Shown piece by piece: positions 2,384-34,771 of a DNA stretch of 64,000 nucleotides. The position numbers and the translations under genes were made by a program. Below the pieces are notes generated by a model that did no database searches, was not told the origin of the DNA, and saw only the letters and a list, made by a program, of their open reading frames with translations. The stretch's first letter is position 1. Each line of letters starts with the position of its first letter. The DNA lies in contig CAVWGN010000001.1 in NCBI GenBank assembly GCA_963754655.1, positions 2,336,001 to 2,400,000 on the forward strand, read 5' to 3'. Source of the DNA: an uncultured Chlamydiae bacterium (lineage in GTDB: Bacteria > Chlamydiota > Chlamydiia > Chlamydiales > Parachlamydiaceae).

Positions 2384-2850
2384 CCCGCAAGAGATCATCT
2401 TGTAATATGACGGCCCTTTAGGCCTAAGTACAGAGCTCTCAGCCAATTCAAAAAACTTATCTTTCTGGTCTAGTACTCAACCACATTAGTTTTGTGTATT
2501 TAGACTCTTTAAAGCCCCGGGGTGGGTTGTTCATTTTGTGCAAAAAATGAGCTTTATTTTTCACAATAATTGGCATAATTAAATTGAAGGTCGCATGTTT
2601 ATGCCGTCCTTTCAGGACTCGATGTCTTTTTGATAGAACCCAGGCCTCCGCTTCGCTGCGACCTGGGCTGTAACATGACGGCCCTTCAGGCCTTAACAAA
2701 AGAGATTTAAGTCCCTCTTCTATAGTCCATAAATAGTCCTTTTGTTAAGGCTTAAAGGGCCGGCCCTTCAGGCCTTAACAAGAGATGTTTAAGTCCCTCT
2801 TCTATAGTCCCTAAATCATCTTTTTGTTAAGGCCTGAAGGGCCGTCATGT

Positions 2851-4116
2851 TGTTTAGGTACAATACATAGGTAACACTATTGGACAAGACATAGGTAACA
2901 CTTTTAAATAGGCAATAAAAAGTTTATTTGAGGTGGATTATGCCTTGGGAAAATAGAGGTACTATGTCAATGAAAGAAGAATTTATAAAAAGAGCCTTAA
3001 GTCAAACAGTGAATTTTAGTCAATTATGCCAAGAATTTAAAATTAGTAGAAAGACAGGTTATAAATGGCTTAATCGCTACACTGAAGAAGGAATATTAGG
3101 TCTAGTGGAACATTCCAAGAGACCGATTGTTTGCCCAGATCAAACATCGAATGAGATGGTTGATCTAATTCTTGAGATTCAAAAGCAATATCCTGCTTGG
3201 GGAGGAAGAAAATTAAGACAAGTCCTCATCAATCAAGGACATCAGGATTTGCCTTGTGAAAAGACATTCAATCGTCTGCTTAGTAAGCATAGAGAAATTT
3301 ACATCCAAAAACCAGTCAAAGCTTTTATAAGATTTGAGCGATCACAACCTAACGAATTATGGCAGATGGATTTTAAGGGTCATTTTCAAATTGAAGAAGG
3401 AAGATGCCATCCTTTAACAATTTTAGATGATCATTCACGCTTTTCGATTTGCTTAAAGGCCTGCTTATCAGAAAGTGAGGCTTGCGTTCGACAAGCTTTG
3501 GAAGATTGTTTTCGCCAATACGGCTTGCCGGATGCTATGACTATGGATAATGGCTCTCCTTGGAAAGGAAGCCCTCCTTTTCGTTTGTCAAGGCTGACTG
3601 TTTGGCTTATGAGATTAGGGATCAAGGTTAGTCATTCTAGGCCTTATCATCCTCAGACACAAGGAAAAGATGAACGATTTCACCGGACTTTAAAAGAAGA
3701 GGTTTTAAAATTTTATCAATTTAAAAACTTAGCAGATATTCAGCAGCGCTTTGATGAATGGCGTGAAGTATATAATTGTATTAGGCCACATGATGGTATT
3801 AACTTGCAATGTCCAGCTCAGCGCTATAAACCGAGTCTCAAACTATTTCCTGAAAGGCTTGAGCCTCTTGAATATCCATTCGCTGATGAAATAAGAAAAG
3901 TGGGGGTGTGTGGCACTATATCTTTTAAAGATAAGGCCTATTTCGTGGGTGAGCATTTATCTAAAGAATATGTTGGTTTAGTGGAAAAAGAGGAAGGAAC
4001 TTTTGATGTCTATTTTGCAACAACGAAAATTCAAAGATTAAATTTAAGGAATAATTCATGAAAAAGTGTTACCTATGTCTTGTCCAATAGTGTTACCTTT
4101 CTCTTGTCCTTAAACA
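2851..4116 (+). mobile_element. IS481-family insertion sequence (type 1)
   Basis: TGTTTAGG...CCTTAAACA ends with ~55-bp imperfect IRs containing repeated (CAT)AGGTAACAC sites; CATGT duplicated at 2846-2850 and 4117-4121. Confidence 0.92.
2940..4061 (+). CDS. IS481-family transposase
   Basis: MPW start; HTH (ISRKTGYKWLNRY); rve/DDE core WQMDFKG, DNGSPW, PQTQGKDERFHRTLK. Confidence 0.92.
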   Translation: MPWENRGTMSMKEEFIKRALSQTVNFSQLCQEFKISRKTGYKWLNRYTEEGILGLVEHSKRPIVCPDQTSNEMVDLILEIQKQYPAWGGRKLRQVLINQGHQDLPCEKTFNRLLSKHREIYIQKPVKAFIRFERSQPNELWQMDFKGHFQIEEGRCHPLTILDDHSRFSICLKACLSESEACVRQALEDCFRQYGLPDAMTMDNGSPWKGSPPFRLSRLTVWLMRLGIKVSHSRPYHPQTQGKDERFHRTLKEEVLKFYQFKNLADIQQRFDEWREVYNCIRPHDGINLQCPAQRYKPSLKLFPERLEPLEYPFADEIRKVGVCGTISFKDKAYFVGEHLSKEYVGLVEKEEGTFDVYFATTKIQRLNLRNNS

Positions 4117-4152
4117 CATGTTACAGCCCAGGTCGCAGCGAAGCGGAGGCCT

Positions 4153-6030
4153 GGGTTGGGATGAGAAAACAAAAAAATATTTAACAACTAATTATTAGAA
4201 CGCTTTTCCTCCTATTTTAAATTCGCTTGGCTTTTTAAAAAGAGGCTTTTATAATTGATTGCTCAAAATTAGATGAGGCATAAAATGGATTCAAAAAGCA
4301 CTCAAAAGCATGAGCGTCCTTCAGATATACGTAAACAAGTGAAGCATTACCAGGAAAGTCGTGATGAATGGAAGCAAAGAAACGCAGAAAAAAGAACTAA
4401 GATTCAAGCTCTAATGACTGATAAGAAACGATTAGGAGAAAGGCTACAAAAGGAACAAGATAATATCTTGGCATTAAACAAACAGATAAAATGCCTTCAG
4501 TCGAGATTAGAAGAGGTAGAAGAGAAAAGTAAAATCAAAGACAAGCAAATTGATGAATTAAAAAAAAAGCTTGTGCGATAATTGAGCAAGAAATTAGCAA
4601 CAATCGAAGGGTCGCTCGACATCAATATCCTATATTATTTATATTTTTGTGATTTCACTTGCATTAGCTGCAATAGCATTTAGAGCGATTCAGCGAATTT
4701 TCATCTTCATGCAGAGTTGTAACATTCCAATATTTAAATATTTCAATTTCCAGCCTTCATGGAAAAGCGTCGAATTGTGGTTTTTACGATATGGGCTTTA
4801 CAAGCTTATAAAGGCTAAGAAAAAGGCTTCAGATTGGATTATCCTTGTTGATTTTAAAGTTCAAGCTGGTTACCAAAAGTGCTTAATAGTTCTTGGAGTT
4901 CAATTAAGTACATTACAAAGTAAGTTTGAAAAAAGGGGCAGCTTTGATATTCATCATGAAGATTTCCAACCACTAGCGCTACAACCCATGAATTCATCAA
5001 CTGGTGAAAAAGTTGCGCATGTTTTAGAAGAAATATCGGAAAAAATTGGCCCATTTCTGCAGATAGTGGCAGATCATGGCAGTGATGTAAATAAAGGTGT
5101 AAGACTATATTGCCAAAACCATGAAAAAACAATAAACACCTATGATGTGGTCCATAAACTAGCAATTCTATTAAAAAAGGAACTGGAAAAAGATGATACT
5201 TGGAAACACATAATTCAATTGATTACAGATACAAAACAAAAGACAAAACAGAGTCCAGAGGCTTTTTTGAGCCCTCCCAAACAAAGAGAAAAAGCGCGAT
5301 TCATGAATGCTGATATTTTAATTGATTGGCTACAAGATATTTTAAACCTTCTTCAAATGCAAGAGACGATTCCCCATTTAGATATAAAGAGACGATTCCC
5401 CATTTAGATATAAATAGATTAAAAGATAAAGCTGGTTGGATAGTCGATTTCGAAGAAGTCATTGAAAATATGCTCAGATGACAGAAATCATTCGTTTGGC
5501 AAGGCATTTAGTAAGAACTGAAGGTCTTCATAGACGAAGCTATGCGACTTTTTTTCTTAAAGCAAGACTTCACTTTAGAAGTTTGAAACCAGAAGCACTA
5601 CATTTGGCAAAAGAGATTTTTTATTTTTTGAAACAGGAAGGTAGAGTGCTATCCAAGGGACAGGTGTTAGTGGGAAGCAGCGAAGGAATAGAGTCTTTGA
5701 TAGGAAGACAGAAAATAATAGTAGAGAGAACCAAAGCAACATCTAGTATAACTAAAAGTATCCTAAGTCTTGCAGGAATGGTTGGGAAAAATAATTGTGA
5801 TATCTTACAAGAGGCTTTAGAAACGGTGTCAGTCGAAATGTTGGAGGAATGGGAAGAAACATGGATTGGCAAAACGGATTTAGCAAAACGAAAAGAAGTT
5901 TTGAGTTTGGGCAAAGTAAATTCAGATGTCATTGAACTTACTATAAAATCAAATAAATTGGAGCCAGAACCGTTAGCGATTTTAGCTATGTAAAAATCGG
6001 TTTTTAGCCCTCGTTTTCTCATCCCAGCCC
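4153..6030 (+). mobile_element. Unclassified DDE-type IS (ISNCY-like), decayed
   Basis: IRs GGGTTGGGATGAGAAAAC (4153) / GTTTTCTCATCCCAGCCC (6030) enclose a broken transposase-like frame; exact ends blur into REP sequence. Confidence 0.7.
4273..5993 (+). pseudogene. Fragmented transposase (coiled-coil orfA plus DDE-like orfB)
   Basis: orfA ends at an A9 run (4560-4568, possible -1 frameshift); DWIILVD..KCLIVLG, ADHGSDV and SSEGIESLIG motifs; broken near 4650, by a 26-bp tandem duplication (5361-5412) and near 5468. Confidence 0.7.
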
Positions 6031-33430: not shown

Positions 33431-33446
33431 AAATTTGTGTTTTCCT

Positions 33447-34601
33447 TCATAATCTCTTAAACCCTCTGGCCATGTTAATTTTTCCTAGGAGAATTGGGCC
33501 GAAATAAATCCCCATTATCCCTACTTCAATTTCTCTGAGTCCTACATATTCCCCTCGTAGCATTTCACTAATGAAGAAATAGGTGCCCTTCCAAGAAATC
33601 AATCCTCCTGCGCAAACTTTTCTGACTTCATAGTAACTGGGGTATTCAATGGGTTTGAATTTACCATCCCAAATAGGTCGAGAAGGTTTATACACGGAAG
33701 CTGGTGTTTGCTGGCCTAATGCTTCGTGGTAACGTCTGTTATTGTAATATTTTTTGAATTGAAGAAATTTTTCCTGTTGAAGAGATAACGTCAAGGCTGG
33801 GGGATTTGCTGTCTCATTTTTTAGAGTTAAATGAAACCTCTCATGCCTACCGTTTTGTTCAGGACATCCAGGATCGATCCATTCTGGAGTAACGCCAATT
33901 TTGATTAATTTAATTGCAATGCTAGATAATCGACCTACAGCCAAAGAAGCAAAAGGGGGACCATTATCACTTCGCAATTTCTTTGGTAATCCGTACACAT
34001 AAAAAAGTTGTTCTAATTCCTTCCAAACATCACATCCCCGTTTCCTTGGCATATGTTGACAATGAAGAAGATAGCGAGAAAAGCCATCTGTAACTGTTAA
34101 AGGTTCGCATATTTGATTATCACCTGTTCGAAACCACCCTTTAAAATCATACATCCAGGTATCATTTGAAGCGTTGCAATCGCCCAATGGAGCTGTTTGA
34201 GTAACATGTCTCCTGTGGATTCGTTGATTGGACAAATTATTTCTCTTTAAAATATTACCGATACTGGCTTCAGAAGGCACTAATAATTCACGATAGTGAT
34301 TTACAAGCTCGGCTCGTATTTTTTTAGGGCCCCAGTTAGGAAATTGCTTGCGAATACTGACAGTTGCTAATTCAACTTCTTTTGAAATTTGATTAGGGTG
34401 GGAAAAGGGAGCCCGAGAAAGGTCTTCAAGGCCCTTTTCTCCGTTTTTTTTAAATCTATTTAACCATTTATATCCTGTTTTAGTACTAATATTGTAACTT
34501 TCACATAAATCTGCAAAAGCTACATGGCGGCGATCAGTGCGTAAAGCTTGATCTATGAATTTTTTACGTTCCTCTGTAGTCGACATAATCCTCCAAGGCA
34601 T
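33447..34601 (-). CDS. IS481-family transposase
   Basis: MPWR start, ISTKTGYKWLNRF, WMYDFKG, SDNGPPF, PEQNGRHERFHLTLK. Confidence 0.92.
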   Translation of the reverse strand: MPWRIMSTTEERKKFIDQALRTDRRHVAFADLCESYNISTKTGYKWLNRFKKNGEKGLEDLSRAPFSHPNQISKEVELATVSIRKQFPNWGPKKIRAELVNHYRELLVPSEASIGNILKRNNLSNQRIHRRHVTQTAPLGDCNASNDTWMYDFKGWFRTGDNQICEPLTVTDGFSRYLLHCQHMPRKRGCDVWKELEQLFYVYGLPKKLRSDNGPPFASLAVGRLSSIAIKLIKIGVTPEWIDPGCPEQNGRHERFHLTLKNETANPPALTLSLQQEKFLQFKKYYNNRRYHEALGQQTPASVYKPSRPIWDGKFKPIEYPSYYEVRKVCAGGLISWKGTYFFISEMLRGEYVGLREIEVGIMGIYFGPILLGKINMARGFKRL

Positions 34602-34771
34602 GGGTTTACCTCCAGTTGTTAATCAACCGGAGTGTTACCCATGTCCTTGGATAATGTCACCTATGTCCTTAGATAAAGTGTTACCCATGTCCCTAGATCG
34701 GACCATGTTACAGCCCAGGTCGCAGCGAAGCGGAGGCCTGGGTTCTATCAAAAAGACATCGAGTCCTGAAA

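Follow-up and report, generated by a model that had tools for sequence, protein, structure and literature searches.

Two divergent IS481-like elements inserted at one position of a palindromic repeat in a Parachlamydiaceae genome, and the target sites of their relatives

The locus and its two elements

The DNA described here is a stretch of 64,000 nucleotides (the window) from an uncultured bacterium of the Parachlamydiaceae (assembly GCA_963754655.1, contig CAVWGN010000001.1, positions 2,336,001 to 2,400,000), in which two different insertion sequences (IS), termed IS-A and IS-B, interrupt the same linker of a repeat that resembles repetitive extragenic palindromic (REP) elements of other bacteria. 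Plain coordinates are positions in the window, and those preceded by C1 or C2 refer to contigs of the host genome (3.16 Mb). Both elements interrupt GGGCCGT-CATGT-TACAGCCCAGG, as the initial annotation of the stretch had it, and this is seen directly. The features are as follows.

2831..2843, + strand: hairpin H1 (GGCC-TGAAG-GGCC) of the repeat arm interrupted by IS-A
2846..2850, + strand: left copy of the IS-A target duplication CATGT, 5 bp
2851..4116, + strand: IS-A, an IS481-family element of 1266 bp with ends TGT...ACA, inverted repeats of about 55 bp and three genomic copies
2866..2899, + strand: left-end boxes of IS-A, two in tandem, CATAGGTAAC, likely transposase-binding sites
2940..4061, + strand: IS-A transposase, 373 amino acids (aa), with two helix-turn-helix (HTH) domains, a DDE core and a C-terminal beta-barrel
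4068..4101, - strand: right-end boxes of IS-A, one exact and one degenerate
4117..4121, + strand: right copy of CATGT, 5 bp, followed by 5 nt (TACAG) and then by H2
4127..4155, + strand: hairpin H2 (CCCAGG...CCTGGG) of the arm into which IS-A is inserted
6030..6445, no strand assigned: empty inverted doublet, the unbroken target reference, whose H1-linker-H2 scores 36.4 bits with Rfam Acido-Lenti-1
32867..32879, + strand: hairpin H1 of the arm interrupted by IS-B
32883..32886, + strand: left copy of the IS-B target duplication ATGT, 4 bp
32887..34704, - strand: IS-B, an IS481-like element of 1818 bp with ends GGT (transposase-proximal) and TGT
33012..33427, - strand: frameshifted remnant of a passenger gene in IS-B, matching no Pfam family
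33447..34601, - strand: IS-B transposase, 384 aa, with 34% identity to its IS-A counterpart
34705..34708, + strand: right copy of ATGT, 4 bp, followed by 5 nt (TACAG) and then by H2
34714..34742, + strand: hairpin H2 of the arm interrupted by IS-B

Prokaryotic members of the IS481 family have TGT...ACA termini with inverted repeats; such termini are present in IS-A, and the two ends of IS-B read GGT and TGT. Each element is formed by one transposase gene flanked by inverted repeats that carry one to three tandem boxes of the form CAT(A/G)GGT(A/G)AC. IS-B has three boxes at each end, and IS-A has two at the left end and, at the right end, one exact box and a degenerate one. The host genome harbours three full copies of IS-A and five identical full copies of IS-B, together with a 64-nt relic that represents one IS-B end. 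A reversed IS-B copy (C1:2138846-2140663) assigns the last C to the element, and thus the transposase-proximal end is GGT rather than TGT and the duplication is 4 bp; the same GGT/TGT pair is found in the close relatives L106-L109. The element in the window accordingly ends at 34704 and not at 34703, and the common CATGT(T) duplication first proposed has to be replaced by one of 5 bp for IS-A and one of 4 bp for IS-B. The opposite orientations reported for the two elements are real for these two copies and do not amount to a rule, since all three IS-A copies lie the same way in the arm, whereas four of the five IS-B copies lie one way and one the other.

The IS-A transposase scores 262.7 bits with NF033577 (cut-off 224), matches Pfam rve, rve_3, HTH_32 and LZ_Tnp_IS481, and has the DDE residues D144, D203 and probably E245. 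NF033577 is also the best family for the IS-B transposase, at 190.8 bits (below the cut-off); its score with LZ_Tnp_IS481 is 25.8 against a cut-off of 22.2, and plasmid relatives in its clade are annotated as IS481. In the predicted structure of the IS-A transposase (mean predicted local distance difference test score 87.8), the pair of HTH domains and the C-terminal beta-barrel accompany a DDE core with an RNase H fold. Its best structural matches are IS21 IstA and TnsB, which accords with the tandem end boxes. Neither a helper ATPase (IstB, TnsC) nor a TniQ/TnsD selector was found among the genes of IS-A or IS-B.

The passenger gene encodes about 146 aa and is intact in L106-L108; in L107 (2649-3089) the gene, for 146 aa, overlaps the transposase stop codon. 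It is broken in 5/5 IS-B copies. The product has a weak likeness to the C-terminal domains of replication proteins and matches unnamed Atlas clusters at 0.92-0.94, all matches to named Atlas families being below 0.9. As a candidate targeting factor the passenger was rejected, being broken in all five copies, without another copy in the host genome, and absent from the IS-B relative L112; it is therefore dispensable.

The target repeat and the insertion register

The repeat forms 177 clusters that make up 1.5% of the host genome, often as long inverted doublets, and one arm consists of three small hairpins. Arm sites lie outside long open reading frames in 281 of 283 cases, and the ‘safe haven’ suggested by the initial annotation therefore fits by location. 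Both elements are inserted in the linker between H1 and H2, and the 5-bp CATGT duplication of IS-A and the 4-bp ATGT duplication of IS-B both stop 5 nt short of the CCCAGG stem.

This register is kept in other chlamydial genomes. An IS-A relative (L015) in genome G017, which has 28 matches to the repeat pattern, keeps the 5 nt with a TATAA duplication, and in G420, with 77 pattern matches, they are kept at three of four loci with a duplication of ATTGC. The duplicated letters thus differ among sites (CATGT, ATGT, TATAA, ATTGC and a relic site ending in CTAT), and since the register is common to genomes with different duplicated letters, neither the spacer sequence nor a likeness to GTAACA explains it. 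The distance to H1 is not fixed across chlamydial sites, being 3 or 4 nt after GGGC. Among the IS-B relatives, L107 keeps the 5 nt although the adjoining stem differs, L112 lies 4 nt from the stem, L106 and L108, neither of which has a clean duplication, lie inside inverted repeats or between them, and the site of L109 is ambiguous. Three genomes of the same genus (G001-G003) gave no match to the repeat pattern and none to the IS-B transposase at 1e-30.

The arm has its own relationships. Its H1-H2 portion falls just under the gathering score (37) of Rfam Acido-Lenti-1 (RF01687), and Rfam gave no match to this family in 16 related loci, where an element splits the motif. Among nine Y1_Tnp matches in the host genome, one Y1 transposase (C1:395846-396184) has inverted arms on both sides and the motif Y---Q--HH, which the accessible text of Quentin et al. 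(2018, PMC6006769) gives for TnpA-Y1 subclass 1.2. The repeat is hence likely a REP/REPIN-like end module of a subclass 1.2 transposase. The motif is what the two have in common; flanking repeats are not described for subclass 1.2 in the text available from that source. Classical GTAG-type REP sequences go with RAYT enzymes (TnpA-REP, class 2); the arm-flanked enzyme, to judge by its subclass 1.2 motif, may fall outside that class.

Is the shared site beyond chance?

Full copies are neither mostly outside the repeat nor scattered over it, the outcome that would have counted against the initial annotation: 8/8 are at the arm site, as are 15 of their 16 ends, and both halves of the arm are retained in seven of the eight. 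With about 300 arm sites per 3.12 Mb, the probability is about 1e-4 per insertion, or 4.4e-4 if only non-coding DNA is tolerated. The duplicated words are common elsewhere, since only 238 of 5145 CATGT words and 262 of 22962 ATGT words of the genome are in the arm register. Other IS types used as controls (11 IS607-like, 3 IS605-like and 2 IS630-like copies) gave 0/16 within 150 bp of an arm site. At least five independent events can be distinguished: two for IS-A, whose copies lie in two subtypes of arm, and three for IS-B, of which one gave the forward orientation, one the reversed orientation and one the relic in a variant arm. Targeting as such has good support.

The linker has an extra A (GTCAATGT) at two junctions of IS-B, as it does in an empty arm near C1:1307187; this A may mark a separate lineage of arms or be a footprint. 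Sequencing run X1, possibly from the source sample, covers IS-B in pieces with the extra-A junction visible, and gave no new insertion sites.

Target sites of relatives in other genomes

Relatives of IS-A were collected at 81 loci (80 plus L015), of which 12 were dropped for missing ends or flanks; 69 were left, 40 of them with an exact duplication. Their sites were scored by a strict hairpin test, which demands a GC hairpin with a stem of at least 7 within 8 nt of the insertion. Across phyla, the test was passed at 35/40 sites with exact duplication, and at 22/26 when only the first locus of each genome was taken; of 2271 control positions taken from these loci, 14.9% passed. The 29 relatives without duplication had to be scored flank by flank, and 5 passed; hairpins split by the element are invisible to such scoring.

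Where examined, the targets are repeated in their genomes. In Telluria, 8/8 copies are at a single register of a REP present in 286 copies, three in one orientation and five in the other. The palindrome CCCTCTCCC occurs in 19-91 copies in 5/5 genomes checked, and a copy of ISRm20 lies, with a 5-bp duplication, within a palindrome found intact 33 times on the replicon concerned. Of the IS-A-type copies in G270, a complete genome, four were scored, and one repeat-like flank is common to all of them. The register differs by repeat family: it is in the linker here, and in the stem or loop in Telluria and in repeats of the CCCTCTCCC type.

A quick version of the transposase tree, rooted on a long branch, places IS-B in a well-supported clade with non-targeting relatives, separate from IS-A. 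The outgroup came from a search with PF13011, which gave two matches in 151 genomes and served no other use. Since the root is unsure, independent gain of targeting and ancestral targeting with losses both remain. The initial annotation proposed a clade of IS481 elements directed to a safe-haven repeat; the host copies and the sites of relatives support a broad IS481 group in which the targeting of intergenic palindromes is inherited.

Two IS-A-type loci of G270 (L149 and L151) have 7-bp duplications, the usual length in the group being 5-6 bp. A further IS481 relative, on a Methylocystis plasmid (L125), has a 4-bp duplication and lies beside what appears by eye to be the 3' end of a tRNA.

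How the site may be found

From these sites we infer what is recognised at the target. The reading that we prefer, and which we put at an even chance, is that single DDE transposases find the site by docking on a hairpin and on a short sequence tag at its foot. The end boxes would be occupied by transposase subunits, in the manner of IS21 IstA and TnsB, and the complex would bind the GC-rich palindrome in the form of a bent duplex or of a hairpin, extruded or single-stranded; such binding would set the hairpin-side cut, the far cut being set by the stagger of each enzyme. The C-terminal beta-barrel is a candidate sensor. Each element is apparently tuned to one repeat family of its host, and the elements would ride an expanding non-coding target if the repeat is a Y1 end module. 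A broader formulation is more doubtful, and is put forward tentatively: that in a widespread IS481 group one small DDE transposase by itself, needing neither guide RNA nor ATPase nor selector protein, measures its insertion from a DNA hairpin, and that the same hairpin-side cut is made, with different staggers, by two lineages that share only 34% identity. The IS-B lineage may have got there independently, because its sister group uses unique sites.

Several observations weigh against hairpin docking or narrow its reach. YAG-CCCAGG stands beside the cut at all chlamydial sites (in the host genome, G017 and G420), which is compatible with plain sequence readout, and the differing register among repeat families is not explained by a single ruler. 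The strict hairpin test is blind to linker-type sites, with 0/4 close IS-B relatives passing and L026 and L027 also missed. Folding-energy z-scores against shuffled sequences reached -3 or lower at 16/66 sites and at 4/37 with duplication, the control giving 4%; this test is weak because C-rich and G-rich repeats fold well when shuffled, it left one base in for 6-bp duplications, and the stem-length test was used in its place. Among distant IS-B relatives (43-46% identity), 0/9 pass the strict test, and targeting is not clade-wide there; by inspection two of the nine (L010 and L121) look palindromic, and in G270 two sites of such relatives are unique sequence. Within the host genome, the odd IS-A end, at C1:91435, abuts non-repeat DNA, the inside of another IS, and probably arose through an adjacent deletion. 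Two IS-B copies (C1:1042822 and C1:2539759) share the extra A and a flank variant present in 3/162 arms; they were probably copied together with their flanks and are hence not independent.

Among the alternatives, a protein tether is unlikely, if not negligibly so: the transposase would bind a protein seated on the repeat (TnpA-Y1, or the host gyrase, Pol I or IHF) and insert at a fixed distance or capture a nick. The fixed 5-nt offset, whatever the duplicated letters, would suit it, and resembles that of IS1202/ISAba32 at XerCD sites in the accessible text of bioRxiv 2022.12.17.520857. The Y1_Tnp matches in the genome could supply a partner, REP sequences bind gyrase, Pol I and IHF according to the available text of PMC1525189, and several unrelated IS types crowd into the same hairpins. 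These other types, however, occupy different positions of the arm; the targets in other phyla are unrelated repeat families, which are unlikely to have one common binding protein, and clean duplications of 4-6 bp favour normal concerted strand transfer over nick capture.

A small share of probability likewise goes to duplex sequence readout, in which each transposase would read a GC-rich motif (here YAG-CCCAGG) that is nearly confined to the repeat, with the hairpin unneeded. Retention of that motif at every chlamydial site and the faithfulness of each element to one repeat family are as this reading would have them. Yet enzymes 34% identical use one register, relatives at 44-50% identity use repeats without a common motif beyond GC palindromes, and L107 holds the register beside a different stem.

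That there is no real targeting, and that duplication or gene conversion of near-identical arms multiplied one or two chance insertions while selection purged insertions elsewhere, is largely refuted and now very improbable. The IS-B pair with the extra A shows that copying with flanks happens; against this, there are two elements, their duplications differ in length, insertions occur in both orientations, a relic lies in a variant arm, and other genomes show the same register in repeats of other kinds, and selection for non-coding sites still gives a probability of about 4e-14 for four events. End mimicry, in which the end-binding HTH domains would grip the target TGTAACATG for its resemblance, real in the host genome, to the GGTAACAC end boxes, is hardly credible, and the hint in the initial annotation of a shared GTAACA core as driver of the site choice is not supported as a general rule, since GTAAC/GTTAC occurs within 15 nt of the insertion at 0/82 sites of relatives, only 263/976 genomic GTAACA words have the register of the arm, and the relic site is without the ACATG part.

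Comparison with known systems

REP targeting by an IS481 element, which the initial annotation did not recall, has already been reported: in the accessible text of Ngan et al. (2024, PMC11708052) one such element occupies a fixed REP position in Pseudomonas fluorescens SBW25. That element is noted there in passing, as a single case and, in the text available, without a clade survey or a mechanism, whereas the present elements are two and divergent, sit in a linker and use another family of repeat; its size and repeat length are compatible with the IS-A group, of which it is a candidate member only. In the literature searched, only this paper and its preprint tie IS481 to REP insertion, and no clade survey was found; ISfinder, TnPedia, most subscription papers and supplements were outside the search.

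Other REP-targeting elements listed in the accessible text of Tobes and Pareja (2006, PMC1525189) are IS1397, ISKpn1 and ISPsy8 (IS3), IS621, ISPa11, ISPpu9 and ISPpu10 (IS110), ISRm22 (IS4) and ISRm19. ‘IS481’ is absent from the main text of that paper, which gives the mechanism of REP choice by the DDE members as unknown. The pattern that its available text calls type 1 REP association is also found here, with 8/8 full copies at the site and a high-copy extragenic palindrome as target. The elements treated there are alike in having all copies at one REP position and, in the DDE cases, a short duplication; those described here differ in their single open reading frame, tandem end boxes, IstA/TnsB-like fold and transposase family.

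Among named IS481-like elements, ISEc19 (yagA of Escherichia coli) and ISRm20 show 42-45% identity to the transposase of IS-A. A single copy was examined in each case, and a CCCCTCTCCCC hairpin adjoins the left end of yagA; no description of targeting by either was found in the literature searched. The ISAba32 subgroup of the IS1202 family, an IS481-related DDE group, inserts 5 bp from XerCD sites with a 5-bp duplication in the accessible text of bioRxiv 2022.12.17.520857. As here, targeting is confined to one subgroup and the insertion lies 5 bp from the recognised site; unlike here, the targets are XerCD (xrs/dif) sites, the left end points towards the site and the transposases have 400-500 aa rather than 373 or 384. 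Scores with NF033594 (IS1202) are 51.6 bits for IS-A and 23.1 for IS-B against a cut-off of 250, which places neither in IS1202. IS21 and Tn7-like elements with target selectors have a helper ATPase or selector gene of their own, whereas IS-A and IS-B have none. The accessible text of PMC10045372 states TGT...ACA termini for IS481EU and gives IS481 target duplications of 2-15 bp, mostly 6; the 5 bp of IS-A and the 4 bp of IS-B are inside this range and off the modal length.

Other elements of the neighbourhood and the genome

Another transposable element uses a different hairpin of the same arm.

34772..36233, + strand, and 55579-57040: IS5/IS1182-like DDE element of 1462 bp, in the loop of hairpin H3 (GTCC-TGAAA-GGAC), with the duplication TGAAA

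All 11 copies of this element (one cut by a contig end) are at the H3 site, in both orientations, and its scores are below all NCBIfam cut-offs; the copy at 34772..36233 is inserted in the same arm as IS-B. The window also holds, at about 4157-6028, one copy of a 1.85-kb unclassified IS, whose pieces gave no Pfam or NCBIfam match and whose 11 copies are mostly at hairpin ends of the CCCAGG/CTCTGG type. Often in or beside palindromic repeats on C1 are a gene-less element of 660 bp (725256-725914), a second IS5-like type (859590-860464), and IS4-like (1896580-1898099), IS256-like (2803853-2805176) and 845-bp IS5-like (2412161-2413005) elements. Positions 50-15354 of the window hold an array of tetratricopeptide repeat-like proteins built from 108-bp repeats and broken by IS and a repeat cluster. 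C1:1-10002 and C2:25940-35310 have about 9-10 kb in common, possibly an assembly overlap.

Significance

REP targeting as a behaviour is not new. What is added here is that divergent enzymes use one cut position, that this position is independent of the duplicated letters, and that close relatives do not target. How a DDE insertion sequence chooses REP targets has been an open question since IS1397, and the present case brings two enzymes to one site with different staggers. Target variants that occur in nature tell the register apart from the duplicated letters, and the close non-targeting relatives are suited to domain swaps. ISEc19 and ISRm20 belong to the named, cross-phylum IS481 group over which the behaviour extends, and one expanding chlamydial repeat serves as a landing pad for several IS families. 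If the transposase does measure from a hairpin, it would represent a compact insertion enzyme addressed by structure, and would offer a clean system for the question of how DDE elements find REP sequences.

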